Shown here: piece after piece, positions 36,310-52,711 of the stretch
Numbering within the stretch: position 1 is the stretch's first letter
Layout of the letters: each line of letters begins with the position of its first letter
IMG/VR virus record: IMGVR_UViG_3300035039_000184
Length of the DNA stretch: 56,665 bases
Reading direction: 5' to 3' (one strand)
DNA from: a virus
Program-made: the position numbers and the translations under genes
The notes under the pieces: generated by a model
The model's input: only the letters and a program-made list of their open reading frames with translations
Database searches by the model: none
Told to the model about the DNA's origin: nothing

Positions 36310-36795
36310 ATGATATATGTAGGTATAGATCCAGGGTTCAAGGGTGCGATATCTGCGATAAACTCAGAGGGAGACCTGATCTGTCTACACGACATGCCCG
36401 TCATAAGCGACGGACGTAAGAATCATTACAACGCTGCCATGATGGTAGACATCCTCCGGAAGCTGTCTCTGGAGGGCAAGCTCCATGCAATGCTGGAACG
36501 CTCACAGGCCATGCCCGGTCAGGGCGTGACCAGTATGATGAAAATAGGCATAGGATATGGAGTCTGGCTCGGCATTTTCGCCGGGCTGGAGATCCCCTTT
36601 TCAACCGTCCGGCCTCACGAGTGGGTACGTAAAATTCTTTCAGGGCTGCCCGGCAAGGGCAAGGAGAGATCCGTTCTCTGGGTGCAGCAGAATTTTCCGG
36701 AGGCTGAGCTGACTCCCGGCAGATGTCGAAAACCAAAGGACGGCCGGGCTGACGCAATCTGTCTCGCAAAATACGCACAATCGGTTGTGGTCTAA
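36310..36795 (+). CDS. RuvC-like Holliday junction resolvase
   Basis: ATG at 36310. IYVGIDPGFKGAI (catalytic D), ..LERSQAMPGQGVTS.. and ..DGRADAICLA, the phage RuvC-family pattern. Confidence 0.7.
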   Translation: MIYVGIDPGFKGAISAINSEGDLICLHDMPVISDGRKNHYNAAMMVDILRKLSLEGKLHAMLERSQAMPGQGVTSMMKIGIGYGVWLGIFAGLEIPFSTVRPHEWVRKILSGLPGKGKERSVLWVQQNFPEAELTPGRCRKPKDGRADAICLAKYAQSVVV

Positions 36796-37212
36796 ATGGG
36801 TCCGAAAATCCTGGAGGCAGCTGAAGAGGTTCTGAAGAGCGTGAAGGCCTGGCGAAGGGAATACGAGCAGCAGAAGAAATACATCGAAGAAAAGTGCATG
36901 GGCGGATCCTGCATGAGCGACAAGATAGACGGCGGCGACATGACGGCACAGCAGGAGAGAATCTCGGACCAGATAGCAGAGGACGTGACATGCCAGTCCC
37001 TGCTGGAGAGAATAAATGTGGCCATGAGAGGGGTACAGGGAGTGAAGGAATTCGATGAACTGCACGGAGATATTCTGATGTCCCTGATCCTGCAAAAGCA
37101 CCAGGACAGCGTATGTACGGAGCTCAATATATCGAGAGCGAGATATTACAGGAACAAAAAGCAAGCCCTTGTTGAGCTTGCACCCAGGATATTTGGAGAG
37201 ATAGGGAGATGA
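36796..37212 (+). CDS. ArpU/RinA-like sigma-related late transcription regulator
   Basis: The C-terminal LNISRARYYRNKKQALVELAPRIFG resembles a sigma region-4 HTH as in ArpU-family regulators. It is the last gene of the early/middle operon. Confidence 0.5.
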   Translation: MGPKILEAAEEVLKSVKAWRREYEQQKKYIEEKCMGGSCMSDKIDGGDMTAQQERISDQIAEDVTCQSLLERINVAMRGVQGVKEFDELHGDILMSLILQKHQDSVCTELNISRARYYRNKKQALVELAPRIFGEIGR

Positions 37213-37214
37213 AA

Positions 37215-37250
37215 AAGGGAGCCCGAAATGGACTCCCTTTTATTATTTAT
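37215..37250 (+). terminator. rho-independent terminator (+ strand)
   Basis: Stem aagggag/ctccctt, followed by ttattatttattattt. Confidence 0.6.
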
Positions 37251-37269
37251 TATTTGTTTAGCTGCCTCA

Positions 37270-37294
37270 TAAAAAAAGAGGGCCGAAGCCCTCT
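37270..37294 (-). terminator. rho-independent terminator (- strand)
   Basis: On the - strand: agagggc ttcg gccctct followed by ttttttt. It overlaps the stop codon of the HTH gene. Confidence 0.65.
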
Positions 37295-37436
37295 ATATCA
37301 ACTTGTCGATCTCTTTTTGCTCAACCACCCACATAAACCCGATCTTCTGCCCTTTGATCCGTCCCTGTCGGCACAACCGACGGAGGTAGGATTCCGACAC
37401 TCCGACGAGTTGTGAGGCTTGTTTGAGGGTTAGCAT
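37293..37436 (-). CDS. 47-aa excisionase/MerR-type HTH (HTH_17-like) protein, copy 1
   Basis: MLTLKQASQLVGVSESYLRRLCRQGRIKGQKIGFMWVVEQKEIDKLI. It overlaps the upstream gene end by 7 nt. It is below the ORF-track cut-off and ~95% identical at DNA level to copy 2. Confidence 0.7.
   Translation of the reverse strand: MLTLKQASQLVGVSESYLRRLCRQGRIKGQKIGFMWVVEQKEIDKLI
37297..37436. repeat. direct repeat copy 1 (~140 nt, pairs with 38701..38839)
   Basis: Aligned by eye there are about 7 mismatches over ~140 nt. The copies are ~1.4 kb apart in direct orientation. Confidence 0.8.
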
Positions 37437-37792
37437 GGTTGTTCCATCTTTTTGTCAATCCCATCAATAATCTCTCGATGGGAAGGTCCATCTTTCCACA
37501 AAAGCCACTGTTTATACAATTTCTTTACAGCTTGCGGGAAGGTTTTTGCTTCTCCGGAATGGGCACGTACTGGCCCGCCCATAAGAGTCACGCTCCACCA
37601 TCCACCGCAGTATCTGGCTTCCAGAGTGTGGTGTAAATGCCCGCTGTTTGTCATCTCTTCTATCATTTCTTCTATCCACTCCATTTTTGCAACACTCCCT
37701 ATAGGATTATCCGCTCTTAGTAAAAGCCCTCTCGCCACGTCAAGGCGGCGGATTTTGAGAGGGTGCCGGGGCAAGCCCGGCAGGGTTAGCAT
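37430..37792 (-). CDS. paralogue family A member 3 (C-terminal part), N-terminus derived from an HTH-gene start
   Basis: TAATG overlap with the upstream gene. It begins ATGCTAACCCT, identical to both HTH gene starts. The C-terminus WSVTLMGG..AVKKLYKQWLLWKDG parallels 30137..30508. Confidence 0.55.
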   Translation of the reverse strand: MLTLPGLPRHPLKIRRLDVARGLLLRADNPIGSVAKMEWIEEMIEEMTNSGHLHHTLEARYCGGWWSVTLMGGPVRAHSGEAKTFPQAVKKLYKQWLLWKDGPSHREIIDGIDKKMEQPC

Positions 37793-38664
37793 TATAATCT
37801 CACTTCCTTAAATACGGGTGGTTTTTCTGATAACAGGTCTAAACAATCTTTTTCAAAATCTGTTAATTTTCGGGCTTTCCCTGTAGGATACACATTCCAA
37901 TAATCACCATCTCTAAGTCCGCCCGGTTCTACTCCTTCAGCCACTGCATACGCAGGGTTGATAACGTATCCAACATCAAAAATATTTCTGCAATGGAATT
38001 TGAGTTCTTCATCTGTGTTTTTATTCTTGCATTTCACTATAGCTATGTAATCCGGCCCCTCTCCGCCTTTGATAGTTTTTCTTTCAAGGATCTCTGTTTC
38101 TATGTGCTGATATTTTTCGTTGATTCTCTTTTCTTCTTCTTGCTTTTTTTCTTTGACTATTCTCTTTCTTTCTTCACGTGCCTTTTCTTTCGCAATCTCT
38201 TTATCAAACTGCTCTTTCACATGTTCTTCTGTTATCCCGTCTATTTCATAATATTTTGCGATCTGCTTTATTTCATCTTCAAGTTTTCTATCATCGATGG
38301 TTACTTCATGCGATTCCCAGCCATGAACAAAAAAGGTATGATAATGTGAAAAATGTTCTTCTTGGAGTGCTCCGTATCCTTGTTTTACTTCTTTGATCCA
38401 GTCCTGCATATCCTCTGTGATCTTTATAGATGCCGTGCCATCGGGAGATTCAGAGCATGAAAATTTGATACCTTCAAGAAAGTTTCCGTCTTTGTCTCTA
38501 AGAGTCCTTAGTTCTCCGTCTTTAATTTCTATTTTTTTACTCCCAGTATCTGCCCAGCCAGTGAAAACAAGATTAGTGCGGAGGAATTCGTCTTTAAAGT
38601 TCGCTGTGATCTCAACTTCTGCATTTTTAGATGTTTTCCCTTTGTAAGTTTTTATTGCCTTCAT
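37792..38664 (-). CDS. hypothetical protein with central K/E-rich coiled coil
   Basis: 290-aa ORF with SD aagggggagaaa upstream. No family recognised. Confidence 0.55.
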   Translation of the reverse strand: MKAIKTYKGKTSKNAEVEITANFKDEFLRTNLVFTGWADTGSKKIEIKDGELRTLRDKDGNFLEGIKFSCSESPDGTASIKITEDMQDWIKEVKQGYGALQEEHFSHYHTFFVHGWESHEVTIDDRKLEDEIKQIAKYYEIDGITEEHVKEQFDKEIAKEKAREERKRIVKEKKQEEEKRINEKYQHIETEILERKTIKGGEGPDYIAIVKCKNKNTDEELKFHCRNIFDVGYVINPAYAVAEGVEPGGLRDGDYWNVYPTGKARKLTDFEKDCLDLLSEKPPVFKEVRL

Positions 38665-38692
38665 TTTTTTCTCCCCCTTGATTTTTAAATTG

Positions 38693-38839
38693 TTACTTAA
38701 TCAACTTGTCGATCTCTTTTTGCTCAACCACCCACATAAACCCGATCTTCTGCCCTTTGATCCGTCCCTGGCGGCACAACCGCCGGAGGTAGGATTCCGA
38801 CACTCCGACGATTGTTGAGGCTTGCTTGAGGGTTAGCAT
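38693..38839 (-). CDS. 48-aa excisionase/MerR-type HTH (HTH_17-like) protein, copy 2
   Basis: MLTLKQASTIVGVSESYLRRLCRQGRIKGQKIGFMWVVEQKEIDKLIK. ATG lies 1 nt after the upstream stop. The longer ORF-track start at 38881 is rejected. Confidence 0.7.
   Translation of the reverse strand: MLTLKQASTIVGVSESYLRRLCRQGRIKGQKIGFMWVVEQKEIDKLIK
38701..38839. repeat. direct repeat copy 2 (pairs with 37297..37436)
   Basis: See copy 1. Confidence 0.8.
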
Positions 38840-38840
38840 G

Positions 38841-39413
38841 TTAGTTGTCCCCTTTTCCCACATCATTCTTTGCCCAGTCAACTATTTCATCAATCGGGGC
38901 AGTTGCAACCCATTCGATATGCTCATCCCAGTTTGACCAGTCGTAGAAAATAATGTCTTCGTATTTTTGTAGTTCAGGAATATTGTTTACTCGCTCGTGT
39001 GCTTCATGGTCCCAATGTTCTCTGACAAAATCACCAAAATCATCAAAATCATCAACATCGCTTACATCAGCGTCAGGGAAAGACGTGTAGTCTATCTGGA
39101 AGTCGGTAAACTTTACGAGAAGAAATAAATTAGTTTCGTTAATCTCAATATTCTGGCTGCTCAAAAGTTCTCTTGCTGTTGTCATTTTCGTTTCCCCCTT
39201 ATAATTTTTCTTCCACTCGCTAATTTCATTGAGTGGTGCGGTTGCTACCCATTCAAGACGATCACGGAAGTCATTGTTATTCTCAACATTTACATCTGCG
39301 TCTGGGAACTGTTGGTAATCTATATCGGAGTCTGTGTATTTAGTGAGTAGGAATAGATTAGTCTCATTAACTTCCAAGTTCTGGCTGCTCAAAAATTCTC
39401 TTGCTGTTGTCAT
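38841..39413 (-). CDS. strongly acidic protein made of two tandem homologous modules (DNA-mimic / anti-defence candidate)
   Basis: ATG at 39413 with SD aaggggg. Module 1 runs 39186-39413 and module 2 runs 38841-39185. Both start MTTARE(F/L)LSSQN(L/I)E(V/I)NETNLFLL and contain FPDADV and EWVATAP. The internal Met (39185) has its own aaggggg SD. The protein is very D/E-rich. Confidence 0.65.
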   Translation of the reverse strand: MTTAREFLSSQNLEVNETNLFLLTKYTDSDIDYQQFPDADVNVENNNDFRDRLEWVATAPLNEISEWKKNYKGETKMTTARELLSSQNIEINETNLFLLVKFTDFQIDYTSFPDADVSDVDDFDDFGDFVREHWDHEAHERVNNIPELQKYEDIIFYDWSNWDEHIEWVATAPIDEIVDWAKNDVGKGDN

Positions 39414-39437
39414 TTTGCTTACCCCCTTATGTATTTG

Positions 39438-39485
39438 TGTTCCTCGTTCGGAACAATTATAGTATAGTACCACGCTCGGAACTTG
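39438..39485 (-). promoter_or_regulatory. promoter region with repeated TCGGAAC/GTTCCGA operator-like motifs
   Basis: A - strand TATAAT (39461..39456) is flanked by GTTCCGA at 39454..39448 and 39482..39476. The proximal copy is part of the inverted repeat GTTCC-N6-GGAAC (39439-39454). Confidence 0.4.
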
Positions 39486-39599
39486 TATATAGGTCTTAAG
39501 ACCCATAAAAACAACAAAAACATGAGTCTCAGGTCTCATCTTTGATCTGAAAGGCAATAATTAGACATTCCTGGGTATACCATTCTCGGGAAAAAAGAG

Positions 39600-39660
39600 G
39601 TAAAATACTACAATAGGGAGGAGGGAGGGGCAATATCTATCATCTTACCCACTCCCTCCG
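39600..39660 (-). terminator. hairpin terminator between the two - strand units
   Basis: Stem ggagggag(ggg)/(ccc)actccctcc (39620-39630 / 39648-39659). On the - strand a T-rich tract tattgtagtatttta follows. Confidence 0.4.
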
Positions 39661-39708
39661 GAAAAACTTCATATCTGAGCTATGCTACAGAACGGTAGTT
39701 GAAAATCC

Positions 39709-39906
39709 TTAAATCCTTTCCCACCTTCCTGGATAGCTGCGATAATCGTATTTCTTCGCTTTAGATTCCCTGAGCTCCCTACGAAAATTCCCCAGGAACC
39801 TCAAAAACAGTGATCCAAGAAACATCCCGAGAAAACCTACAGATCCTGCATATAGGAAAACAAGAAACAAAAACCTCCAGAATTCAACTTCAGTCATCGT
39901 GATCAT
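39709..39906 (-). CDS. 65-aa membrane protein
   Basis: Hydrophobic WRFLFLVFLYAGSVGFLGMFLGSLFLRFL followed by a basic tail. ATGA-type overlap with the upstream gene. Confidence 0.5.
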   Translation of the reverse strand: MITMTEVEFWRFLFLVFLYAGSVGFLGMFLGSLFLRFLGNFRRELRESKAKKYDYRSYPGRWERI

Positions 39907-40124
39907 ACCAAAATCCTCTCCTTTTCAAGGAAAAATAAATAGCTTTCTTCGAGAAAACTTCCGTTGATGTTTCTGCTGTTGATCAGGTTGACAACTTCCT
40001 CCCTGTCTCTCTGATCAATAACATTTCCGGCATGATCGGAACATCGTAAAACGGATTTTCCATTCAGGTTTGTGCTAATAGTAATGTCTACAGAGTTGCA
40101 GTTTTTTGTGAGGTAAATAGTCAT
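39903..40124 (-). CDS. 73-aa hypothetical protein
   Basis: ATG at 40124 is preceded by ggaagggagag. The ORF-track GTG start at 40157 has no SD. Confidence 0.45.
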   Translation of the reverse strand: MTIYLTKNCNSVDITISTNLNGKSVLRCSDHAGNVIDQRDREEVVNLINSRNINGSFLEESYLFFLEKERILV

Positions 40125-40301
40125 TGATATTTCTCTCCCTTCCTGGTGTTTTTTCACTTCGATAAAATTTGATTCTTAGCTCCGTGATGGTTGATAGCTA
40201 CTGGAAAGATATTGCTGTCACTTTAGTTGAGAAAAGTTTATAAATACCTCCCTTTGAGAAATTTACTTCAGAAATTTGCCTATTAATCAACTTATATAGC
40301 A

Positions 40302-40620: not shown

Positions 40621-41199
40621 GTGACAAAAAGAGACAAAAAACTCACGGACAAACAGATGATGTTCTGTCACGAATACGGAAAGGACATGAACGCTACCCA
40701 GGCTGCGATACGTGCAGGATATTCAAAAAGGACGGCAGCAGCTATGGGACAGAAGCTCCTCAATCTTCCTCACGTAAAAAACTATCTCTCAAAGCTGACA
40801 AACTGCCGATTTGAAAACGTTAACATCGAGACAGAGGCCGTGTTGAAGGAGCTCGGAACTCTCGCTTTCAGTTCGATGAAAAACCTCGCACGATGGAGTG
40901 ATCCCGAAGGAGTGGTAGTTAACAGCTCTGATGATATCCCAGACGATATCGCACGCTGCATATCCTCAGTAGAGGACGTGATCGACAAGGACGGAAACAA
41001 ATGCGGCGTCAGGATAAAGCTTCACGACAAGATCAGACCTCTTGAGATCCTCGCAAAATACGTGAACATTCTCGTTCAGCCTGCTTCCGGAAAGAAGGAC
41101 GATCCGGTCCATACGAAGGATCTGGGAGCGATCCTGGAGAAAGCCTGGGCAGAGGTAGAGCAGGAGAAACAGGAGGCTGAAAAGGAAAATACAGAATGA
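40621..41199 (+). CDS. terS: terminase small subunit (Terminase_2/P27-type), GTG start
   Basis: LTDKQMMFCHEYGKDMNATQAAIRAGYSKRTAAAMGQKLL is the typical N-terminal HTH of this family. It lies directly upstream of terL. Confidence 0.8.
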   Translation: MTKRDKKLTDKQMMFCHEYGKDMNATQAAIRAGYSKRTAAAMGQKLLNLPHVKNYLSKLTNCRFENVNIETEAVLKELGTLAFSSMKNLARWSDPEGVVVNSSDDIPDDIARCISSVEDVIDKDGNKCGVRIKLHDKIRPLEILAKYVNILVQPASGKKDDPVHTKDLGAILEKAWAEVEQEKQEAEKENTE

Positions 41200-43136
41200 T
41201 CCAGGTAGAGGAAAGGATTGTTGCTGCCACAAAGCAGTTCATTCTACATCCTGTCCCGTTTGTGCAGAAAGTGATCCATGCAGAACCGGATACATGGCAG
41301 AGAGATGCCCTGAATGCCCTGGTCACGGAACCGCGTATCTCCATCATGTCAGGGCACGGAGTCGGAAAGACTTCGTTTGAGGCTTTTTCAATTCTCTGGT
41401 TTCTTGCGACACGTCCCTATTGCCGGGTTGTGGGCACTGCTCCTACGTTTCCTCAGTTGATGGACGTGTTGTGGCCGGAAATCGGCAAATGGTTGAACCG
41501 TTCAGACCTTTCGGACGTGTTCAAGTGGACCAAGACAAGGATCTACTACACAGGAGATCCGGAAAACTGGTTTGCCACTGCGAGGACATCGAATAAACCG
41601 GAAAACCTGGCAGGCTTTCACGAGAGGCATATCCTATTTGTCTGCGATGAGGCGTCAGGTATCTCTGAGGATATCTACGAGACCATTGAAGGAGCTCTTA
41701 CAACTGACGGAGCGAAACAGATCCTCTGCGGAAACCCAACGAAGAATACAGGAACATTTGTTGACAGCTCGGACAGAGACAGGGCCCTTTACTGGTTCCG
41801 GCGTGTTCCCTGCTACGAAAGTCGGCTTGTCAGCCCTGCCTACTGGGAACGGCTTGCACGAAAGTATGGAAAGGACAGCGATGTATATCGAGTTCGCGTT
41901 GAGGGGCTGCCTCCGAAGGCCGAGCCTGATGTTCTGATTCCCATTGATCTGGTCGAGAGCGCGATTAACAGGGACATAGAGACGGAAGACGATCCTGTTG
42001 TCGAGCTCGGAGTCGACGTTGCCCGTTTCGGAAACGATGAGACCGTCATTGCAGGAAGGGTCGGAAACATACTGACAAGGCTGGAGACACGGCACGGACA
42101 GGACACCATGGTCACTACAGGGATGGTCATTTCAACGGCCATGCAGATGCACGAGGAATACCACCCTTCATATATAAAGGTAAAGATCGACGATGACGGA
42201 GTAGGCGGAGGCGTCACGGACAGGGCGCGTGAGATAGTCCGCGAGAAGAAGCTGCCCATACAGATAGTCTCCTGCCACAACGGAGGCAGGGCCTACAACC
42301 GGGACATGTTCCGAAACTGGGGCACGGAAAGCTGGGTGCACTTCAAGAATCTTCTCCTGGACGAAAAGATATCCCTGATCGAAGACGAGGACATGGTAGG
42401 GCAGTTCAGCACAAGGAAATACCGGACCCTCTCAAGCGGACAGATGCAGCTCTGGACGAAAGAGGAGATGAAAAAAGAGGGAGTATCTTCACCGGACAGG
42501 GCGGATGCAATTGTGCTCTGCTTTGCCGAGACGGAAGGAGTTGCGGAGATGGTAGTTCCAGAGTTCGAACCGGGAAAGCACATTGTGAAACCTCCGAAGT
42601 TCGACCGGGCGGATCCTCGCTACATCGCGATAAAGCCCATTCCAGGAGGCAAAATGTCGGCTCTCTGGCTGACAGTCACGAGGGAAGGAGGTATGTATGT
42701 ATCCGATGAATTTACAGAGAGCACCACTGTAGCGGACTTCTGTCAGTTGGTAAGAAGAAAGACCGGAGTTGATCCGGTGGCAATGCATATCATTGATCCG
42801 AAAGCATGTCTGAGAAACGGAGTGACAGGCGAGATCTGGGCAAATGAATTTAGAAAGAACGGATTGCCGGTCATCGAAGGTGCAAAGGACCATAATCGGG
42901 GGATCATGCTGATACGTGAGCAGCTATCAGGTTCCGTAGGCAGGCAGGACCTCAAGATCTGTTCTCACTGCACCGAGACGCTCAGACAGCTTTCGACATG
43001 GCAGACAGGACATGAAGAGGATGACAGGTTCGCACTCATGCAGTGTCTGTGGAGAATTCTCAGTGTGAACCCAAAGTGGCAGGACATGGATAAGTTCGAC
43101 GAACCTCTTGAATACCAGGAGGCAGACGTGCCGTAG
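41196..43136 (+). CDS. terL: terminase large subunit
   Basis: Walker A SGHGVGKTS and Walker B ILFVCDEASGI, with a C-terminal nuclease-like half. 646 aa. Confidence 0.85.
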   Translation: MIQVEERIVAATKQFILHPVPFVQKVIHAEPDTWQRDALNALVTEPRISIMSGHGVGKTSFEAFSILWFLATRPYCRVVGTAPTFPQLMDVLWPEIGKWLNRSDLSDVFKWTKTRIYYTGDPENWFATARTSNKPENLAGFHERHILFVCDEASGISEDIYETIEGALTTDGAKQILCGNPTKNTGTFVDSSDRDRALYWFRRVPCYESRLVSPAYWERLARKYGKDSDVYRVRVEGLPPKAEPDVLIPIDLVESAINRDIETEDDPVVELGVDVARFGNDETVIAGRVGNILTRLETRHGQDTMVTTGMVISTAMQMHEEYHPSYIKVKIDDDGVGGGVTDRAREIVREKKLPIQIVSCHNGGRAYNRDMFRNWGTESWVHFKNLLLDEKISLIEDEDMVGQFSTRKYRTLSSGQMQLWTKEEMKKEGVSSPDRADAIVLCFAETEGVAEMVVPEFEPGKHIVKPPKFDRADPRYIAIKPIPGGKMSALWLTVTREGGMYVSDEFTESTTVADFCQLVRRKTGVDPVAMHIIDPKACLRNGVTGEIWANEFRKNGLPVIEGAKDHNRGIMLIREQLSGSVGRQDLKICSHCTETLRQLSTWQTGHEEDDRFALMQCLWRILSVNPKWQDMDKFDEPLEYQEADVP

Positions 43137-43145
43137 AAAGGAAGG

Positions 43146-43475
43146 ATGAAGATGTCTGAAAAAGCGACAGGATTTGAGATGTTATTAGTGTTTTTGGTGG
43201 CTATAGCTTCAATGGTTCTTCACGGGGCTATTTTTTCTGTTTTATGGGAATGGTTTTTTGTTCCTCTTGGTCTTCCTGGAATATCTATTGTTCACGCAAT
43301 GGGGATTGGCATAACAATAGCCTGGTTAACTAAACCAGCGAGCAAAAAGCCAACAGATAAGGACTCTTTGGATAAGTGGGAAAACATCAGGCGACAACTT
43401 GAATCCTTTAAACAGGTCTGGATATACGATCTTATTACCTTTGGAACTTTATACATTGTTCATGTATTTGTTTAG
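43146..43475 (+). CDS. hypothetical membrane protein (3 predicted TM segments)
   Basis: 109-aa ORF with hydrophobic segments LLVFLVAIASMVL, FSVLWEWFFVPLGL and GIGITIAWL. Confidence 0.5.
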   Translation: MKMSEKATGFEMLLVFLVAIASMVLHGAIFSVLWEWFFVPLGLPGISIVHAMGIGITIAWLTKPASKKPTDKDSLDKWENIRRQLESFKQVWIYDLITFGTLYIVHVFV

Positions 43476-44597: not shown

Positions 44598-44963
44598 ATG
44601 GGAAGAATTATCATCGACAAGGCAGGAGAAAGTTACGAGGGGTGCATTACTAACAATCCTGACTACAATCCATTGAACCTCACAAAGACTCCTGTCCCTG
44701 AAGCTGAACGCAAGAAACAGATTGAGAAAGCGGAGAAGGGAATTGAAGACCAGCTTGGTCCTGAACTACTCGAAAGACTGAAGGATGAGGGACTTGCACT
44801 GCTTGTCGAGCTCATAAACAACGGACCGGCATATGTCGAGGCAAACCTCGAAAACCTTCCGATGGACCCCACAAGGCCGGCAAATGCGAGCAACAATCCT
44901 CTCCAGGTCGGGCTTTCGATGAGCCTTACCAGGGACAGCGAGGAAAGCGAGGATCCCGAATGA
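44598..44963 (+). CDS. hypothetical protein
   Basis: ATG at 44598 with gaagggag 9 nt upstream. 121 aa. Confidence 0.5.
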   Translation: MGRIIIDKAGESYEGCITNNPDYNPLNLTKTPVPEAERKKQIEKAEKGIEDQLGPELLERLKDEGLALLVELINNGPAYVEANLENLPMDPTRPANASNNPLQVGLSMSLTRDSEESEDPE

Positions 44964-45763
44964 TAACTATCATAGCAGGGGAAAACCAGACCTTCATCTT
45001 TTGCGACACCGAAGAGGAGAAAAGCGCGGAAGTACTGAAGGGGCTCGGAAAGGAGATCATAGAGATGGCAGAGGACGAGGAAAGATTTGAACACGCCGGA
45101 GAGATAGGCGACCAGGAAGAGGGTGGATATTCCGAGTGCATAGAGTCGGAATATGACAAGAGGATCTACCAGGAAGACCTTCATCTCGACGGAAGACCTG
45201 AGTATATGAGATTGTTGAAGTTCCAGGGGAACTTTGCGGACGCGGTACATGCCATGCAGAACGGCCTCGCTGTTCGAAGAAAGTCATGGGGAGACGACCA
45301 GTGGCTTGAGATGATGGACACCGTGGGAGCACACGACGACATCTACGTGAACGACGTTCTTATAGTCAAGTGCCCGAACGAGACCTACGACTGTTATCTC
45401 GCGACCGATGAAGACCGGTTCGAGGTGGAGGACTGGGGCCTTGTGGGAGCTCTCAAGTACCGCCTCAAGATGGAACAGGAGAAGTACCGCGAGGACATCG
45501 TTACAGACGACGAGAAGAGGATCCTCGGAAACTTCATAAAGTCCAGGAAGTTCTTTCATAACTACATCATGGAAAGAGGCAGTCATGTGCTGTTCTCCAC
45601 AGACGCCAGACAGAAGCTGTTTGAGGAGATATCTTCAATATATATCCGTGAGAACGTTGAGGAGATAGCCTACCAGACGGGCAAGATCAGCGACAAGGAC
45701 CTGTGGCTGGACTGCGTGATGGCCTCGGATATAGGAAATGAGAAAGGAAGGAATGAGAAGTGA
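44960..45763 (+). CDS. DUF2829 (Tad2-like) domain-containing protein
   Basis: Residues ~88-163 (nt ~45225-45450): NFADAVHAMQNGLAVRRKSWGDDQWLEMMD...YLATDEDRFEVEDWGLV fit the DUF2829 pattern F..A...m..G..v.R..W...D....DW..v. Extra N- and C-terminal regions are present. Confidence 0.6.
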   Translation: MITIIAGENQTFIFCDTEEEKSAEVLKGLGKEIIEMAEDEERFEHAGEIGDQEEGGYSECIESEYDKRIYQEDLHLDGRPEYMRLLKFQGNFADAVHAMQNGLAVRRKSWGDDQWLEMMDTVGAHDDIYVNDVLIVKCPNETYDCYLATDEDRFEVEDWGLVGALKYRLKMEQEKYREDIVTDDEKRILGNFIKSRKFFHNYIMERGSHVLFSTDARQKLFEEISSIYIRENVEEIAYQTGKISDKDLWLDCVMASDIGNEKGRNEK

Positions 45764-46110
45764 TGACCGAATCAAATTGTGATGCGTGCAGAGAAAGGAA
45801 GGGTATAGATATCTTAACTTCGGATGTCTGTGCAGAGGGAGAAGTGGCAAGCAACTGGGACGAGATATTGACCGATCTTTACAATTTAAGAGACAAGGCA
45901 ACAGAAATCTCCGAAAACACGGAAAAAATGACGATCTTCTTCGTCGGAGGCGTCAAGGACCCAGAACCTGTCGAGGGACATGCCAGTAAGGAAGTTGGGA
46001 AACCGGAGAACAGGAGCTACATAGACAGGATCTTTACGCTATTTGGCGAGATAAGAGAGGAACTGTACAAGATAGAGAATAACCATAACAAACTTTCGAG
46101 AGGATACTAA
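45763..46110 (+). CDS. hypothetical protein
   Basis: TGATG overlap with the upstream gene. 115 aa. Confidence 0.5.
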   Translation: MTESNCDACRERKGIDILTSDVCAEGEVASNWDEILTDLYNLRDKATEISENTEKMTIFFVGGVKDPEPVEGHASKEVGKPENRSYIDRIFTLFGEIREELYKIENNHNKLSRGY

Positions 46111-46118
46111 GGGAAAGG

Positions 46119-47069
46119 GTGAAAACCTTGAAACGTACAGGAATTATGTATCACCTGGCAGATCTTGACGGACACTGTTCCGGAGCTCTCGCCAGGTTTT
46201 TTTGTGAGATTGAGGGTTCCTATCCGTGCATGTTCCCCATGAACTACGGATACAAGGTCCCGGAAGAGATCTTCGGAATGGACAACGTGGTAATGCTCGA
46301 CTTCTCCCTTGACTATGACTCCATGTCAGGGCTGAAAGAGGTATTCGGAGACAACTTTGTCTGGATAGATCATCACGGCCCGGCGATCAACGAAATGCTG
46401 GAGCTCTTTATCCATGGGAAACAGAAGACTGGAGAGGCTGCGTGTGAACTGGCGTGGAAATATTACGCACCTTCATTTAAAGAGACGAAGGGTCTCGACA
46501 TGCCGGAACTGGTAGAGCTTCTCGGACGCTACGACGTCTGGGACCAGTCCGACAGCACGAGATGGAGTGAGGAGATACTCCCTTTTCAGTACGGAATGAG
46601 GGTAATGGAGACCTGTCCAAAGCGGAACTATGCATGGTGGCAGGACAGGTTCAAGGAATATATCTATCCCGGTGCTTCCGCATTCGAGAATAAGAAAAGA
46701 CTTTACAGGGTGATTACAGAGAAGCAGCGAGATGGCAGGGTAATACTGGAGTACCAGAAGCAGCAGGACAGGAAGTACATGGACGCATACGCCTTTGATT
46801 GCAAGTTCCGTGGACAGCCGGCAGTTGCCGTCAACCGTGGAATGATAAATTCAAGGAGCTTTGAGAGCGTCTACAATCCTGTCATTCATACGTTCATGAT
46901 TGCATTTTCGAGAAAGAGTAACGGTAAATATATCGTCTCTGTCTATTCAGAGGAAGAGGGAATACATTGTGGAATCATAGCCAAGGAGTACGGAGGAGGA
47001 GGCCATGCCGGAGCGGCAGGCTTTACACTTTCCGTTGATCCCGTTACAGCAGGGGTAATTGAGATATAG
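46119..47069 (+). CDS. DHH/DHHA1-family phosphoesterase (NrnA-like size)
   Basis: Motifs HLADLDGHCS (DxD), VVMLDFS, WIDHHGP (DHH) and EYGGGGHAGAAGF (DHHA1 GGGH). The start is GTG 46119 or ATG 46146. Confidence 0.75.
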   Translation: MKTLKRTGIMYHLADLDGHCSGALARFFCEIEGSYPCMFPMNYGYKVPEEIFGMDNVVMLDFSLDYDSMSGLKEVFGDNFVWIDHHGPAINEMLELFIHGKQKTGEAACELAWKYYAPSFKETKGLDMPELVELLGRYDVWDQSDSTRWSEEILPFQYGMRVMETCPKRNYAWWQDRFKEYIYPGASAFENKKRLYRVITEKQRDGRVILEYQKQQDRKYMDAYAFDCKFRGQPAVAVNRGMINSRSFESVYNPVIHTFMIAFSRKSNGKYIVSVYSEEEGIHCGIIAKEYGGGGHAGAAGFTLSVDPVTAGVIEI

Positions 47070-47078
47070 CCGAAAGGG

Positions 47079-49214
47079 GTGGTGATTTATGACATGCCGG
47101 ACTTGATTGAGGGAGCAGGATATGAGCCTACAGAGGCAGTAGACGCCACTACCGTATCTCTGCTTGACGAAAAGAACGTTGACACAGAGGGACCTCCAAG
47201 TGAGGAGACAATTGTCAGATGGATAAAGGCAGATATTGATGACGCCGAAGAACTCCAGGACGAACTGAGGGAGATTCGGCGTCAATGTTATCAGCTTTAC
47301 AGAGGAAAAAACGCAGACAAGGAGCGTGAGGGCAGAAGCAACATAGTCTCAACGGAGATAATGAACGCAGTTGAATGGGTAATACCATCCCTTATGAGGA
47401 TCTACTTTCAGTCAGATCAGATAGTAGTATGTGAGGGAATGGGCCCTGAAGACGTCCCCAAGGGCGAACAGATGACCCGCGTCCTGAACGACATGTTCAC
47501 ACGCAGACAGGGTGGGTTTATAAAATGCCTTAAATGGTTCAAGGATGCCCTTGTATATGGCCTCGGGGCAGGGAAAATCACCTGGGAAGAGGAATTCCAG
47601 GAGTCCGAGCTTTATTATAAGGAGCTGCCTGAGGATGCCTTTGATCTTCTCACTTCAGATCCCACTATTCATGTAGAGCATTATGTGGTCGAGGAAGAGG
47701 AACAGGAGACAGCAGGACTCGGTAAGCTGGCTACAATGTTCGGAATTCCATCTCAGACAACAGAGCCAATTGTCAAGAAGACATATTCCGATGTAAGGGT
47801 AACGGAGGCTGTAAAGACCTATGAAGGGATAGCCTTCGAGGTCCTTCCTCTTGAGGATTATCTCTACGATCCAAAGGCCGAGGATACCGGGGACTGTGAC
47901 TACCAAATACACAGGGTGGAGCTGTCTATAGATGAATGCCTGAGAAGAGAAGAAGAGGGCATTTACAAGAATGTAGACGAGCTTATCTCCATAGCACAGA
48001 CCGGACAGGAGCCAAACGACGGTAGGGGAGACGCAGAAAAGGCGGAAAGATACGCCGAAAACAACAGGACGGATCCCAACTCAATAAGCACCACTAACGA
48101 TCCTGACCAGATTGGACGCCAGAAGGTGACTGTCTACGAGTGGTGGGGAGACCTCGACATTGACGGAACAGGGAAGCTCAAACCCTACGTTGTGGCAGTG
48201 TGCGAGGACGTTCTGATCCGTTGTGATCCCAATCCATACAATCACCAGAATCCCCCCTTTGTCACATTAAGACCAATGCTTGATATTCATACCTTCGAGG
48301 GTATAGGAATGGCGGACCTGTTGAAGGAAGAGCAGCAGACTCTTACCGCAATAACGAGACAGTATCTCGACAATCTGTCATGGCAGAATAACGGCATGTG
48401 GGAGACGGACCGAAACGCAAGAGTTGAGATGTCGTCTCTTCTCAAGCCAAGACCTGGAGGAGTAGTGAGGACCGACAGAATTGGATCTGTAAAATCCCTT
48501 GCACCTCCCGACATAGCCTCACAGGCTCTGCAGGGTATTGAGTTCATGAGAGATGCCTGTCAGGCGAAGAGTGGAGTCACGAGATATTCACAGGGGCTTG
48601 ACGCAGACGCCTTGAACAAGACCGCCACTGGCATAACGGCTATCATGAGCAAGTCCGATGCAAGGATCGAGCTCATAGCTCGCACCTTTGCGGAGACAGG
48701 AGTAAGAGACCTCTTTGTGATGGCTAACTCCCTTGTGCAACAGTTCATGACCATGGACTATTCGGTCAGGGTATACGGAGAACCAATACAGGTAGCACCT
48801 GACGACGTTAAGGGCAACTTCGATATTATCGTAAGTGTGGGGACCAATCCTGGAAGGCAGGAGCAGATAGCACAGCAGATGCTCCAGCTTATAAACATGT
48901 CCGGGGCTCTCATGCAGAACGGAGTAATGACGGCTGACAACATGTACCAGATAGTTATTAAGCTGCTGGAATGCTGGGGACACAAGGATACAGAGCACTA
49001 TCTCACAGATCCTCAGGTCATGCAGCAGATGCAGGGAACTATACAGGGACTGAGACAGCAGATAATTCAACTGACGGGAGTTGATCCATTTGGACAGCAA
49101 CAACAGCAACCCGGAAATGCAGGAGGAGGTCCAGGCGGCCCAGGAATTCCTGGCCAAATGCCGGCTGGTGGATCTGGAGGCCCTCCGGGAGCTCCACAGA
49201 CACTATCAGGATAG
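47079..49214 (+). CDS. portal protein (candidate)
   Basis: 711-aa ORF positioned upstream of the scaffold and major capsid genes, with a Q/G/P-rich C-terminal tail. Assigned by size and synteny; no motif verified. Confidence 0.6.
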   Translation: MVIYDMPDLIEGAGYEPTEAVDATTVSLLDEKNVDTEGPPSEETIVRWIKADIDDAEELQDELREIRRQCYQLYRGKNADKEREGRSNIVSTEIMNAVEWVIPSLMRIYFQSDQIVVCEGMGPEDVPKGEQMTRVLNDMFTRRQGGFIKCLKWFKDALVYGLGAGKITWEEEFQESELYYKELPEDAFDLLTSDPTIHVEHYVVEEEEQETAGLGKLATMFGIPSQTTEPIVKKTYSDVRVTEAVKTYEGIAFEVLPLEDYLYDPKAEDTGDCDYQIHRVELSIDECLRREEEGIYKNVDELISIAQTGQEPNDGRGDAEKAERYAENNRTDPNSISTTNDPDQIGRQKVTVYEWWGDLDIDGTGKLKPYVVAVCEDVLIRCDPNPYNHQNPPFVTLRPMLDIHTFEGIGMADLLKEEQQTLTAITRQYLDNLSWQNNGMWETDRNARVEMSSLLKPRPGGVVRTDRIGSVKSLAPPDIASQALQGIEFMRDACQAKSGVTRYSQGLDADALNKTATGITAIMSKSDARIELIARTFAETGVRDLFVMANSLVQQFMTMDYSVRVYGEPIQVAPDDVKGNFDIIVSVGTNPGRQEQIAQQMLQLINMSGALMQNGVMTADNMYQIVIKLLECWGHKDTEHYLTDPQVMQQMQGTIQGLRQQIIQLTGVDPFGQQQQQPGNAGGGPGGPGIPGQMPAGGSGGPPGAPQTLSG

Positions 49215-49230
49215 GGCACTTGTGGAGCTT

Positions 49231-49395
49231 ATGAAGGTGGAAGATCCCTATTCGAGAGAGGCTGGATCAATAGTCGCGAGGATACAGGGAGCTAATGACT
49301 TCATAGCGGAGATAGAGGCAACAAGAGAATATTCGGCAAGTGTGATGGTAGCCGACAGCTACATGAAAGAAGATCAGGAAGATCAACCCGGATAA
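49231..49395 (+). CDS. hypothetical small protein (weak)
   Basis: First ATG after the portal stop within ORF 49081..49395. The SD spacing is poor. Confidence 0.3.
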   Translation: MKVEDPYSREAGSIVARIQGANDFIAEIEATREYSASVMVADSYMKEDQEDQPG

Positions 49396-49453
49396 GGGAG
49401 TCTTCCTTTTATTTTAAGCCACGACAAGGGTGGCAAAAGGAGAGTGAGGAGAA

Positions 49454-50536
49454 ATGGGTAAAAAGACCAACCGAGAGGAGTCTTTTGACCAGGAGCAGTT
49501 CGACCGTGAATTCTTTGGCGAGGTTGAGGAAGACGACACTGGTCTTTTTTCAGGAAGGTCCGACGATGACTTCGAAGATGAAGACGAAGAAGTTGAAGAG
49601 GAAGACGAAAGCAAGAAGTCAACTGAGGAACCGGATGCCGAAGAAGGGAACGAAGGCGAGGAATACGAGGAGGATATCCTTGGAGACGATGAGGAGCCGG
49701 ACGATGAGGAGTTAGAGCAAGACGAAGAGGACGAAGAGGAGGACTCCAAAAAGGACGAGGCCAGTCCCAAAAAAGGAGCAACCGAATCAGATCCCCTTGT
49801 CACTCTCGTTCATCAGGGACGGGAAATTCCGATTCGATCAAAAGAGGACCTTGCAATTCTCGCACAGCAGGGGCTTGACTATACAGCAAAGACTCAGGCC
49901 CTTTCGCCATGGAGAAGTTTAATTCAATATCTGAACTCCAACCCTGAGGTGTTACAGGATATACAGGCGAGGATGGAGGGTAAGGAACCACAAAAAGAGG
50001 ACAAGGAAGAAAAAACAGCCCTCCCGGAACAACGAGAAGATGAGACCTACGAGGAATACGTAGCCAGGGTTGCGAGAGAGAGTGCAAAGCAGGAGTACGA
50101 GAGCAGACAGAAAAGCGAGAGCAGGAAGAATGACCAGATTGCCCGTACTGTAAGCAACGTGCAGAAGGATCCCCTCTTCCGACCTGTGGTCCAGTTAATG
50201 ACCGAGGACCTCAAGAACGGAAGATTGAGCCAGGAAGAGTATCAGAGAGCCAACAAGGACCCAAACGCATTTGCGGAGCTTTACACGAGATATCGCACCA
50301 CAGCGGATGTCCTGATACGAAACTCCCAGAAAAAGAAGAAGGAGCCCGGAGTGCCGGAACCAACCGACAAAAAGACTCCGGTAAAGAAGAAGACAAGAAA
50401 GACCTTTACCGAGAAGTCACGGAGGAAAAAGGCAACTCCGTCTTCTAAGGAGATAACCGACAGGGCAATCGAGGAAATGGACAACGAATCCCTCGAACAG
50501 CTCATCGAGCGAGTGAAAGGAGGAGAAAAAATTTAA
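49454..50536 (+). CDS. scaffolding protein (candidate)
   Basis: 360 aa with an extremely acidic N-terminal third, then a K/E/R-rich helical region. It lies immediately upstream of the capsid gene. Confidence 0.6.
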   Translation: MGKKTNREESFDQEQFDREFFGEVEEDDTGLFSGRSDDDFEDEDEEVEEEDESKKSTEEPDAEEGNEGEEYEEDILGDDEEPDDEELEQDEEDEEEDSKKDEASPKKGATESDPLVTLVHQGREIPIRSKEDLAILAQQGLDYTAKTQALSPWRSLIQYLNSNPEVLQDIQARMEGKEPQKEDKEEKTALPEQREDETYEEYVARVARESAKQEYESRQKSESRKNDQIARTVSNVQKDPLFRPVVQLMTEDLKNGRLSQEEYQRANKDPNAFAELYTRYRTTADVLIRNSQKKKKEPGVPEPTDKKTPVKKKTRKTFTEKSRRKKATPSSKEITDRAIEEMDNESLEQLIERVKGGEKI

Positions 50537-50550
50537 CCGAGGTGATATAA

Positions 50551-51474
50551 GTGAACACCACAACCAGTTTACCTTCAAGGGTGGAGAAATTTTACGTTCG
50601 CACCCTTCTTAAAAGGGCACTGCCCTTTCTTTGCCATAGAAACTGGGCTCAGCACAAGCCAATGAAGAAAAACAGCGGAAAGCAGATCAACTTCACAAGA
50701 TTTGCTTCCCTGGGGCTTGCCACAACTGCCCTTACCGAAGGTGTGACACCTGAAGGACAGGACCTCTCACAAAGCACCATCACTGCGACACTCAAGCAGT
50801 ATGGCGGCTGGGTTCCTGTTACCGATGTTGTTACACTTACCAATTTTGACCCTGCCCTTACTGAGGCCATCGAGCTTCTTGGAGAGCAGAAAGGTCAGAC
50901 CGTAGATGTCCTCATGAGAGACACTATGCTTGCCGGAACCAACGTATGGTACGCCGGTGCAGTTGCGGCACAGAGCTCCATAATCACAGGCCCCTCTGAG
51001 GCAGATCTGAGGGGAATCGTGAGGTTCCTCAAGAACGCCAACGCCAAGAGGATTACTCGGATGATCAATCCCACCACGGGAGTGGGCACCGTTCCGATTC
51101 CTCCATGCTTTATCGCCATATGCGATACCGACGCTTCCGACGACTTTGAACAGCTCTCTAACTTCACGAGGGTTGAGGAATATGCATCCCAGAAGGGAGT
51201 AATGGAGAACGAGATCGGCAAGATAGGCATAGTCCGTTTTGTCGAGACCACTCTCGGCAAGGTGGAATCAGCTGCCGGAGACGCGGTAGGGACCAGCGGA
51301 CTCATAGCCGCAGACGACACCAATGTGGACGTCTACAAGACTCCCATCTTCGGTGCCGAGGCTTACGGTGAGTCTCCGCTGAACGCCGGAACTGTCGGAG
51401 TTATCGTGAAGAGTCACGTCAAGAACGATACTTCCGATACTTCGGACCCATTGAACCAGAGAAACACGGCGGGT
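50551..51474 (+). CDS. major capsid protein (N4-gp56 family), exon 1
   Basis: KFYVRTLLKRALP..KPMKKNSGKQINFTRF..LTEGVTPEGQDLS..TATLKQYGGWVPVTD..ELLGEQKGQTVDVLMRD..GTNVWYAG matches that family. The exon ends ...DPLNQRNTAG with the last nucleotide T. Confidence 0.85.
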
Positions 51475-52711
51475 AAACATTTACAGGCAGCTGCCTGATC
51501 CTGCTCGCCTTAAACCTCTTCTGATTAACTGGGGAACCCCTAACGATAAAGACGAGGGCAACCCACAACAAGGTCACTTGGCAAGGCCAATACCGGTTGC
51601 AACGACTGAGTGAAGAGGCCATGCAAAGCATGGAAGCGACAGTCTGAACTGCATGGAAACATGCAGAGCGAGATCCGAAGAGTTCTCGCCGCTTGGGATT
51701 ATTGACACAACTGACACCCTCAACTAAAATAGTATTGTTGGAGGTGTTGAGATGACAAAGGAGATTTTTACACGGGAATTATTGGAGCATTTCAAAGGGA
51801 TGGGCTTGACTACAACTGAAATTTCTAAAATGATTTATGGACATCCTGAAAATTACAGAAATATCAGGAGAGCCTATAGGCGTCATAGTATCGAGCCTTG
51901 CAAGACACAACCGCTTAAGCCGTCGAGGGAAGAACTTGAACAAATGATTAACAGTGGCAAGACTCCATATGAGATAGCTAATGAACTTGGATATGGAAAT
52001 GGTGGATGGAGTAATATTTACAAATATTGCAGAGACTATGGAATTACAGATTTTGACTTCTCTACAAACGCCGAGGCAAAGAGTAGAGAAGTTAAGGGAG
52101 ATATTGCTTCTGTTGTATTTGGGACGCTTCTCGGTGACGCAACAGTAAATAGTTATGGAGCTCTTGTGGTTTGTCATGGAGAAAAGCAACTCTCTTATTT
52201 GAAATGGATAAAAGAAAAACTTGGGTGGCTTGCCATGCCTAAGCTTTACAAATCCGATAGGCCTCATAAACCTCCATTTAGCAAATTGCCAACATATTCA
52301 GTACGTAGCCATCATCATCCTTTTTTGAAAGAACTGAGGGAAAAGCTATGGATTAATGGAGAAAAGCGAATATCATCTCTCTTGGATCGATGTTATTTTG
52401 ATGAACTATCTTTAGCGGTTTGGTATTTTGATGATGGGTCCCTTAATAAGAATTCTGGTGTAGTTACATTTGCGACCAACGGGTTCCCTGTAGTAGATGT
52501 GGAACTCATAAGAGAGTTTATGCGCGAAAGGTTTGACATACAAACAGTTTTGGAACCAAGGAGAAACAACACGTATTCTATAAGAATCAATAAATCAAAA
52601 ACTCCACGGTTCTTTGATCTCATAAAATCCCGTATAGAGAAAACTCCACCGTCAATGGAGTATAAAATCCCAAGTCAGTAGGAGGAGCCCACCTCCGAAA
52701 GTAACAGAATG
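51475..52711 (+). mobile_element. self-splicing intron (group I-like) carrying a LAGLIDADG homing endonuclease
   Basis: The capsid frame is broken after GGT (51474) and resumes at TGG (52712), giving ..NTAG|WKVLWAGEILDDDHIVRYEH, the conserved family C-terminus. The 5' exon ends in U and the intron ends in G (52711). A candidate P1 pairs GGCGGGU with gctcgcc (51503-51509), giving a U-G wobble at the splice site. Confidence 0.7.
51752..52681 (+). CDS. LAGLIDADG homing endonuclease (double-motif) with N-terminal HTH-like region
   Basis: Own SD ggaggtg. Motifs VVFGTLLGDATVN and LAVWYFDDGSLNKN. It is AT-richer than the flanking capsid exons. Confidence 0.8.
   Translation: MTKEIFTRELLEHFKGMGLTTTEISKMIYGHPENYRNIRRAYRRHSIEPCKTQPLKPSREELEQMINSGKTPYEIANELGYGNGGWSNIYKYCRDYGITDFDFSTNAEAKSREVKGDIASVVFGTLLGDATVNSYGALVVCHGEKQLSYLKWIKEKLGWLAMPKLYKSDRPHKPPFSKLPTYSVRSHHHPFLKELREKLWINGEKRISSLLDRCYFDELSLAVWYFDDGSLNKNSGVVTFATNGFPVVDVELIREFMRERFDIQTVLEPRRNNTYSIRINKSKTPRFFDLIKSRIEKTPPSMEYKIPSQ

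Follow-up and report, generated by a model that had tools for sequence, protein, structure and literature searches.

In the published structure of SPO1 Tad2, glycocyclic ADP-ribose (gcADPR) is bound via W25, N26, W73, S76, T78 and D79, and in HgmTad2 the contacts are W21, N22, G23, W87, L88, S90, T92 and D93. The asparagine of the WNG motif (N26 in SPO1, N22 in HgmTad2) touches the phosphates of gcADPR, and the HgmTad2 mutants W21A/N22A and S90A/T92A/D93A lose binding. The ligands of the family include 3'cADPR, His-ADPR, N7-cADPR, cUMP/cCMP and cyclic dinucleotides, and more than one pocket is used. Nucleotide signals also enter the literature on viral DHH phosphodiesterases. Iyer et al. 2021 (PMC7824862) predicted that those of jumbo phages counter SMODS and type III CRISPR signals, and cite a cellular DHH-DHHA1 enzyme degrading a type III messenger. 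In a preprint of July 2026, Profeta et al. (10.64898/2026.07.21.739742) describe DHH-DHHA1 enzymes throughout viruses; mimivirus R106 degrades 3'3'-cyclic GMP-AMP (3'3'-cGAMP) and several other messengers, and one phage DHH enzyme blocks 3'3'-cGAMP signalling in a cell assay. Here we analyse a stretch of viral DNA of 56,665 nucleotides (IMG/VR record IMGVR_UViG_3300035039_000184; the window, below, is this whole stretch), in which the genes of a Tad2-like protein and of a stand-alone DHH-DHHA1 protein lie one gene apart between the large terminase gene, terL, and the portal gene.

An earlier note on this DNA had taken the two genes for a two-pronged anti-signalling pair, a sponge next to a nuclease. 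The analysis does not support such a pair: adjacency is restricted to the phage's own lineage and a recombination breakpoint lies between the genes. We think it probable that they are two independently inherited accessory genes in a variable terL-portal island of a novel phage of ~56.7 kb, and that they form no dedicated two-component system.

The distribution of the two genes carries much of this argument. Three relatives (L001, L002 and L004) have them in the same order, down to 55% identity of the DHH protein, and within the lineage this conserved order is shared ancestry. Elsewhere the association was surveyed in both directions. An open reading frame (ORF) of the DUF2829, or Tad2, family was found within ±8 kb at none of the 79 other IMG/VR DHH loci and within ±6 kb at none of the 37 genomic ones (0/116 in all), six-frame searches agreeing in both sets; conversely, none of 80 canonical Tad2 genes has a DHH-family ORF in the ~1 Mb around them. 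Co-occurrence in related phages, which the earlier note had proposed as a check, thus ends with one lineage.

The DNA is itself divided between the two genes. L004 is 99.5% identical to the window over 46113-50924, an interval that holds portal, scaffold and capsid, and the breakpoint falls six bases before the DHH start. Upstream of 46113 the same relative is 84-88% identical, with no match over the small ORF orf116, and homology to L001 and L002 also resumes near 46018-46113. At the protein level, identity to L004 is 97% for TerL, 99% for orf125, 96% for orf141, 93% for orf136 and 65% for the Tad2-like protein; orf116 has no orthologue; identity then stands at 99% for the DHH protein, 99% for the portal and 100% for the scaffold. 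Given the breakpoint and these gene-by-gene identities, the Tad2-like gene and orf116 make up a cassette exchanged between genomes that are nearly identical elsewhere, and the DHH gene belongs to the conserved head-gene block. Further upstream, terS (40621-41199) and the membrane-protein-like orf109 (43146-43475) share 75% and 62% of their amino acids with L004, while TerL between them shares 97%. Across the packaging region, swapped alleles form a patchwork. The parts of the locus are as follows.

41196..43136, + strand: large terminase gene terL (phrog_2 at 1.9e-38), upstream edge of the accessory island.
44960..45763, + strand: coding sequence of the Tad2-like three-part protein, 267 aa (ORF; PF11195; profile match to solved Tad2s).
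45760..46110, + strand: orf116, a small ORF to which no function is assigned; close relatives have a non-orthologous ORF in its place.
46113, no strand: mosaic breakpoint; the block upstream of it is variable, the DHH-portal-capsid block beyond it conserved.
46119..47069, + strand: coding sequence of a stand-alone DHH-DHHA1 phosphodiesterase with 316 aa (GTG start at 46119) or 307 aa (ATG start at 46146, the one used in databases; P0001).
47079..49214, + strand: SU10-type portal gene (PF23899 at 1.8e-146), beginning 9 nt past the DHH stop.

Both ORFs are present on the + strand at the coordinates that the note gave. Pfam and PHROG profile matches identify terS, terL and the SU10-type portal around the two genes, so that their location between terL and portal, as first described, holds. 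Identity of the portal to its counterparts in cultured phages does not exceed 30%, and its matches spread over many hosts, giving no host name. Between terL and portal lie eight small co-directional ORFs that overlap by 4 nt, or are spaced by 9 nt or by some tens of nt; the Tad2-like start overlaps the stop of the upstream orf136 (ATGA), and the start of orf116 overlaps the Tad2-like stop (GTGA). No match to orf116 was returned by Pfam, PHROG or NCBIfam, and neither a DNA match nor an orthologue is present in L004 or L002. Terminator-like sites number 18, against 10.4±3.6 in shuffled sequences, with none in a coding-strand intergenic position; all lie inside coding sequence or on the other strand. 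A sigma-70 promoter scan of the region gave match counts at the level of shuffled sequence. Because the genes are tightly packed, with no intergenic terminator on the coding strand and promoter matches no more frequent than after shuffling, the Tad2-like and DHH genes would most simply be co-transcribed with the packaging and head genes.

What, then, are the two proteins? The Tad2-like ORF matches PF11195 ('Thoeris anti-defense 2-like domain') with E=7.5e-9 and 36.4 bits (gathering cutoff 25) over positions 2-73 of the 73 in the profile. This places the domain, put by the earlier note at residues ~88-163, at residues 91-162, and profile and fold comparisons all return Tad2. A profile of the four-sequence family matches all solved Tad2/AcrIIA7 structures (9kzr, 9eib, 8v3e, 8kbi, 8wjd, 8sme and 8wje) at E 1.4e-16 to 1.8e-13. 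Its AlphaFold2 model is weak, since the alignment held four sequences only: the predicted local distance difference test score (pLDDT) is 44 overall and ~70 in the domain, so that use of the model is confined to the domain. There the modelled secondary structure runs from a helix through five strands with a short helix, in agreement with the Tad2 fold (N-terminal helix, antiparallel sheet of five strands, short helix ahead of the final strand), and the top 24 fold matches in the PDB are all Tad2 structures, with target-normalised template-modelling (TM) scores of 0.5-0.78. The domain is a genuine member of the Tad2/DUF2829 family, but a divergent outlier. Word-indexed homologue searches returned 2, then 4 proteins; only three relatives exist among 5.8 billion clustered proteins (P0122 at 65% identity, P0123 at 34%, and P0124), and an exhaustive phmmer search of 1.84 billion representatives found one real relative. 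Three further phmmer hits (P0125-P0127) are TPR-repeat proteins and, per Pfam, spurious. Direct sequence searches of the PDB with either the Tad2-like or the DHH protein were uninformative, and profiles were needed.

The architecture sets this protein further apart. Typical Tad2s are small proteins of a single domain that assemble into homotetramers. In a sample of 86 canonical Tad2 ORFs from IMG/VR, lengths run from 66 to 354 aa, so that a size of 267 aa is by itself no bar to membership, and 39 of the 86 are extended at the N-terminus by 60 aa or more. Unlike the window protein, none of them (0/86) is extended at both ends, in agreement with the earlier remark that the domain is unusually embedded. 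Jackhmmer, run with the regions on either side of the domain, gave no hits beyond the lineage itself, and homology of the N-terminal region to the extension common in P0124-like Tad2s was ruled out (hhalign probability 0.1%). Each flank holds a conserved segment, ECIESEYDKRIYQEDLHLDGRP upstream and YREDIVTDDEKRILGNFIKSRKFF downstream; no homologues of the former were found beyond the lineage, and none of the latter beyond the window and L002-L004. The protein is very acidic, with 61 D/E against 33 K/R and a net charge of ~-28, a composition that recalls phage DNA- or protein-mimic inhibitors. Pfam, PHROG, NCBIfam and jackhmmer gave no fold or family match that would indicate another function for the flanking regions.

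45134..45199, + strand: conserved segment ECIESEYDKRIYQEDLHLDGRP on the upstream side of the domain, specific to the lineage; here the alleles agree at 93%, against 65% over the whole protein.
45230..45445, + strand: DUF2829/Tad2 domain, residues 91-162 (Pfam envelope, secondary structure of the model, fold matches).
45287..45304, + strand: remodelled pocket loop WGDDQW, canonically WNGKG(M/F) (alignments).
45395..45436, + strand: second pocket segment YLATDEDRFEVEDW, canonically WLASQTD-MLAxDW (alignments).
45485..45556, + strand: lineage-specific conserved segment YREDIVTDDEKRILGNFIKSRKFF, downstream of the domain, 96% identical between the alleles.

In the pocket the domain departs from its family. 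Aligned to WNGKGMW, the window loop reads W-GDDQW: the asparagine is deleted and Lys-Gly is replaced by Asp-Asp, while W110 and G111 are kept. Among the 86 canonical ORFs, 67 have NGKG after R..W. The second segment reads YLATDED, in which, by HgmTad2 numbering, W87 has become Y146, S90 has become T149 and T92 has become E151, and D93 is kept as D152. The domain as a whole has 16 D/E against 5 K/R, a net charge of -11, where the solved domains of ModTad2 and HgmTad2 are near neutral. Compared with the published contacts, the alignment thus lacks the canonical set of gcADPR pocket residues, and given that the phosphate-binding asparagine is deleted and the loop acidic, canonical gcADPR capture by this protein appears unlikely. 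Of the sponge-like domain originally proposed, family and fold stand; the canonical gcADPR pocket does not.

The relatives suggest how this state arose. The orthologue (P0123) in L001, a more distant relative, retains the full canonical WNGKGMW and W..S.SD pocket, and for this reason the ancestral protein was probably an ordinary nucleotide-signal sponge. Two natural alleles exist, with the pocket loops WGDDQW and WDVNEW. When they are compared, the most conserved parts are residues 56-85 (93%) and 176-195 (100%), both outside the domain, and the least conserved are the pocket loops (43-47%; second segment 47%). Such a pattern, read from two alleles, would fit either a retuning of specificity or a relaxation of the pocket while another function persists.

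In the DHH-DHHA1 protein, motifs I-IV (DxD, D, DHH and D, which in this superfamily bind two metal ions; motif II is D61) are all present and invariant or nearly so across 66 homologues, as is the GGGH region. All the motifs that the earlier note had named (DLDG, WIDHHGP and GGGGHAGAAGF) are among them.

46161..46172, + strand: DHH motif I, DLDG, aa 15-18 (alignment D6 and D8 nearly invariant).
46362..46382, + strand: DHH motif III, WIDHHGP, aa 82-88 (D75, H76 and H77 invariant in the 66 homologues).
46527..46544, + strand: DHH motif IV, RYDVWD, with D139 (alignment D130 invariant).
46992..47024, + strand: DHHA1 substrate-binding motif GGGGHAGAAGF, aa 292-302 (GGGH and AAG invariant or nearly so; aligned to the GGGH of NrnA and DhhP).

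Judged from these motifs, the protein is catalytically complete. Pfam scores DHHA1 at 31.5 bits (cutoff 25.9) and DHH at 27.4 bits, just below the cutoff of 28.1, and phrog_4771 ('DHH phosphoesterase') is matched at 7.8e-27. Pfam returned no DHHA2 match, the C-terminal match being DHHA1; DHHA2 is carried by family II pyrophosphatases and exopolyphosphatases. The clade also has conserved cysteines of its own (DLDGHCSGA, AACELxW), to which no role is assigned. The AlphaFold2 model is strong (pLDDT 96.3, predicted TM score 0.89) and has two lobes with an ordered inter-lobe helix at 179-215. It gives 57 fold matches in the PDB at E<=1e-3, the top-ranked all DHH-DHHA1 enzymes; the best are H. pylori 6mtz, Borrelia DhhP (PDB 9R7O in Foldseek), mycobacterial NrnA/CdnP, T. 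maritima TmPDE and Vibrio PggH, with RecJ below them. The note's view that the protein is too short for RecJ and of nanoRNase size is borne out by this two-lobe model of NrnA/NrnB size. Such stand-alone enzymes also lead the profile matches in the PDB; identity to them is 11-16% and the global TM score 0.4-0.5. The best structural matches in BFVD are predicted DHH proteins of giant viruses and jumbo phages, from Klosneuvirus, Marseillevirus and Lausannevirus and from phages PaBG, PhiEaH1, ME3, RP12 and AR9 (TM 0.61-0.75, with 0.70-0.75 for the best of them; 12-21% identity).

The label given to P0001 by JGI is NrnB/COG2404. Myers et al. 2025 recognise NrnB, a 3'-5' exonuclease of short RNAs, by COG2404 assignment, a DHH domain and the GGGH motif, and find that NrnB proteins without a long C-terminal tail (clades NrnB-B and NrnB-C) prefer RNAs of 2-5 nt; the window protein is likewise without such a tail. 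The equivalog of NrnA, the bifunctional oligoribonuclease/pAp phosphatase (NCBIfam NF053633), was rejected, with 15.5 bits against a cutoff of 350 and an alignment limited to the GGGH region. Purifying selection acts on the gene, the ratios of nonsynonymous to synonymous substitution rates (dN/dS) against relatives being 0.19-0.36. Its family counts 1074 homologues at E<=1e-3 and 520 IMG/VR loci, and among ~186,000 species genomes only 37 cellular loci, all in metagenome-assembled genomes (MAGs) scattered across phyla. Seven of the 37 (L084, L085, L087-L090 and L095) are in archaeal MAGs of the Methanotrichaceae, one of them on a 2.2-Mb contig. The family thus occurs in archaea too, possibly in proviruses.

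Neighbouring genes give a further hint of what the family does. When the ±5 flanking genes in 59 lineages were clustered by BLAST in search of a common DHH neighbour, no family recurred in more than 4 of the 59. The neighbours that can be annotated elsewhere are mostly genes of replication, recombination and nucleotide metabolism (RusA, family-B and Pol III polymerases, DnaB, Thy1, ribonucleotide reductase (RNR), dCMP deaminase, NUDIX, RecA, RecT and RtcB), and in this way the neighbourhoods lean to nucleotide metabolism.

Several observations concern the genome at large. The window is one whole contig. At its end, 56336-56665, a 135-bp unit is repeated perfectly in tandem (2.4 copies, 100% match), and the repeat continues at its start, 1-~127; the unit, which we take by eye to encode a tail-fibre-like motif, seems to read 'GSGLDADLLDGQH'. 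With the same perfect repeat at both ends the genome is probably complete; a circular or complete genome, or wrap-around in the assembly, would account for the repeat. An ORF of 4360 aa at 7526-20608 on the + strand matches DarB-like antirestriction, DNA methyltransferase and helicase profiles (phrog_11801 at 5e-148, phrog_10089 at 2e-122, phrog_62 at 1e-39); it closes the structural gene block and has the look of a polyvalent counter-restriction protein that may be delivered with the virion. The genome also codes for a RecE/RecT pair and a DNA methyltransferase. A LAGLIDADG homing endonuclease (51752-52681, + strand; phrog_11023 at 4e-19) follows directly after the capsid-like ORF 50551-51498, with the region's best sigma-70-like match (51702-51730) ahead of it; a mobile insertion or an intron, within the capsid gene or beside it, is a possible reading. 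Just upstream of terS, a block of minus-strand ORFs (36401-40157) has a GC content of 0.40 against ~0.49, with GC and AT skew reversed, and may be a regulatory, lysogeny-like or recently acquired module. The large terminase of L001 (L001:4729-7740) has 984-1003 aa against 646 aa in the window, which suggests an insertion, an intein or an extra domain, in one of the lineages.

Taken as two separately inherited accessory genes, the proteins may be pictured as follows. The first gene encodes an acidic three-part protein, most likely sponge-derived, whose central ~75 residues keep a divergent Tad2 fold with a remodelled pocket, and which would bind a different ligand or serve another role resting on its conserved flanking segments. 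The second encodes a catalytically intact DHH-DHHA1 enzyme of a virus-rich, NrnB-like (COG2404) clade, predicted to be metal-dependent, to clamp a short oligo- or dinucleotide between its metal-binding DHH lobe and its GGGH lobe and to hydrolyse it to mononucleotides; this is proposed by analogy, given the known mechanism of NrnA, NrnB, TmPDE and PggH. As to the purpose of such hydrolysis, nucleotide salvage is the role that we would tentatively put first, though it falls short of an even chance; the clearing of linear or cyclic immune messengers may be possible, and something else again is unlikely.

Several points weigh against separating the genes in this way, or against a role outside defence. 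Since the adjacency is kept down to 55% DHH identity, some cooperation specific to this lineage is conceivable. Given that Tad2 homologues are functionally plastic, a remodelled gcADPR pocket is no proof that the sponge function is lost, and the model of the Tad2-like protein is of low confidence. Viral DHH enzymes are able to degrade cGAMP and other messengers. Finally, the annotation of DHH neighbourhoods covers a minority of the flanking genes, and as early and replication regions also host anti-defence genes, such neighbourhoods do not separate salvage from counter-defence.

Among the alternatives, the one that survives best would have neither gene engaged in counter-signalling; we hold it unlikely. 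The DHH protein would here be purely a salvage nanoRNase or dinucleotidase that completes the degradation of host nucleic acids and so feeds phage DNA synthesis, and the Tad2-like protein, its sponge activity lost, would act through its conserved acidic flanks, for instance as a protein or DNA mimic or as an assembly factor co-expressed with the head genes. For the enzyme there is much in accord with this: its nearest characterised cellular relatives are nanoRNases and pApA/pGpG phosphodiesterases, it bears the COG2404/NrnB label in the short form that prefers 2-5-nt RNAs, its family neighbours RNR, Thy1, dCMP deaminase, NUDIX, polymerases, RusA, RecA and RecT elsewhere, and the gene is under strong purifying selection and linked to the core portal block. 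Yet salvage and signal clearance are compatible in one DHH enzyme. For the Tad2-like protein the net charge of ~-28 and the location of its most conserved segments outside the domain point the same way, but the Tad2 fold and the pocket residues W110, G111, D152, D158 and W159 are retained, the L001 orthologue has a fully canonical pocket, and neither fold nor family comparison gives the flanking regions an alternative function.

A coordinated anti-signalling locus, close to what was first proposed, is in our view somewhat less probable still. In such a locus the Tad2-like protein would sequester an immune nucleotide of Thoeris, CBASS or Pycsar, and the DHH enzyme would hydrolyse the same or a complementary signal, be it cyclic di- or oligonucleotides, SAM-AMP-like conjugates or linear products. 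Its components are there, a true Tad2-family domain and a catalytically intact DHH-DHHA1 enzyme, in an order conserved in L001, L002 and L004; the cassette that holds the Tad2-like gene is hypervariable and swapped, a common setting for accessory and anti-defence genes; the giant DarB-like antirestriction protein indicates that this genome invests in counter-defence; viral DHH enzymes that degrade 3'3'-cGAMP, and the jumbo-phage prediction, supply a precedent; and the ligand range of the Tad2 family is broad. Nevertheless, co-occurrence, surveyed in both directions, is confined to one lineage, and a recombination breakpoint and a non-orthologous spacer gene separate the two genes. In the Tad2-like protein the phosphate-binding asparagine is deleted and the pocket acidic, and between alleles the pocket loops are the least and the non-Tad2 segments the most conserved. 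The DHH family is usually found among replication and nucleotide-metabolism genes, and no promoter sets the two genes apart from the late packaging and head operon.

A bolder version of cooperation seems to us highly improbable. The acidic, asparagine-less pocket would have been retuned to an immune signal outside the range of all known sponges, such as one that lacks a diphosphate, is bridged by metal or carries positive charge, with the DHH enzyme destroying nucleotides of the same pathway; the two would form a lineage-specific, late-expressed pair produced together with the head genes, and might be delivered or pre-loaded alongside the DarB-like protein. That the DHH protein is a RecJ-like single-stranded-DNA exonuclease of recombination or of end processing during packaging is scarcely credible: it does belong to the DHH/DHHA1 superfamily, adjoins packaging genes and has RecJ and RecJ-Cdc45 fold matches at E ~1e-6, but at 307-316 aa it consists of the two catalytic lobes without the OB-fold or extra domains that form an ssDNA channel in RecJ (typically more than 500 aa), these matches rank under all stand-alone phosphodiesterases and nanoRNases and cover part of larger targets, the RecJ2 profile match is marginal (E=0.0099), and the phage has a RecE/RecT module ~20 kb away.

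Two accessory genes of separate inheritance thus remain our preferred account, and the locus is of interest for each of them and not as a new kind of system. What is new here is modest: a three-part, acidic, asparagine-less Tad2 variant with two natural alleles, and another uncharacterised member of a widespread viral DHH clade, unusually placed directly upstream of portal. A DHH-type counter-signalling enzyme in a phage, which the earlier note had presented as a novelty, was predicted in 2021 (PMC7824862) and partly shown in July 2026 (10.64898/2026.07.21.739742). Should the Tad2-like protein still bind a ligand, its deleted asparagine, acidic loop and flanking segments would extend the structural and ligand range of Tad2, and the alleles WGDDQW and WDVNEW, whose main differences lie at the pocket, would offer a ready-made comparison of specificity. 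The DHH family, with more than 1,000 homologues and 520 IMG/VR loci, is mostly viral and uncharacterised; an answer to the choice between salvage and clearance would annotate a widespread phage gene, and would also put to the test the recent proposal that viruses have repeatedly used the DHH fold as an immune antagonist.

How do the two proteins compare with those already described? With the established signal-degrading phage enzymes Acb1, Apyc1 and AcrIII-1 the DHH protein could share a role, the hydrolysis of immune nucleotides. Apyc1 has a metallo-beta-lactamase fold and AcrIII-1 is a ring nuclease, and all three are unrelated to DHH in fold and catalytic chemistry. Acb1 is a 2H phosphodiesterase (10.64898/2026.07.21.739742), and the searches made gave no sequence or structural relation between any of the three and the window protein. 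To cellular NrnB, NrnA/CdnP (Rv2837c), TmPDE, PggH, DhhP and the catalytic domain of GdpP it is closer, with the four DHH motifs, the GGGH motif and a length of ~300 aa in common; it differs in its family-specific cysteines and in the largely viral range of its family, with 520 loci in IMG/VR and 37 in genomes. Closest in kind are the viral DHH-DHHA1 enzymes (mimivirus R106/'Euk-DHH-1B', phage 'Ph-DHH-3B' and those of jumbo phages), which are likewise stand-alone, two-lobed, virus-encoded proteins with an inter-lobe helix. An ordered helix of this type was described for the viral-rich groups 4 and 5 (10.64898/2026.07.21.739742), and the window protein, as modelled, appears to have this feature together with an affinity to viral members. 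It differs from the enzymes of jumbo phages and giant viruses in sequence, at 12-21% identity, and in setting, its gene lying in a 57-kb phage beside portal.

The Tad2-like protein resembles the characterised Tad2s (SPO1 gp34.65; HgmTad2/AcrIIA7, ModTad2 and SptTad2) in its PF11195 domain and predicted fold, in being phage-encoded, in the window from a variable accessory locus, and in retaining the F..A..A...G..V.R..W core and the C-terminal D....DW. It differs from them in length, 267 aa against ~89-170 aa, in its unrelated N- and C-terminal regions, and in the pocket, where W-GDDQ lacks the asparagine, W87 is replaced by Y and T92 by E (HgmTad2 numbering) in a domain with a net charge of -11.

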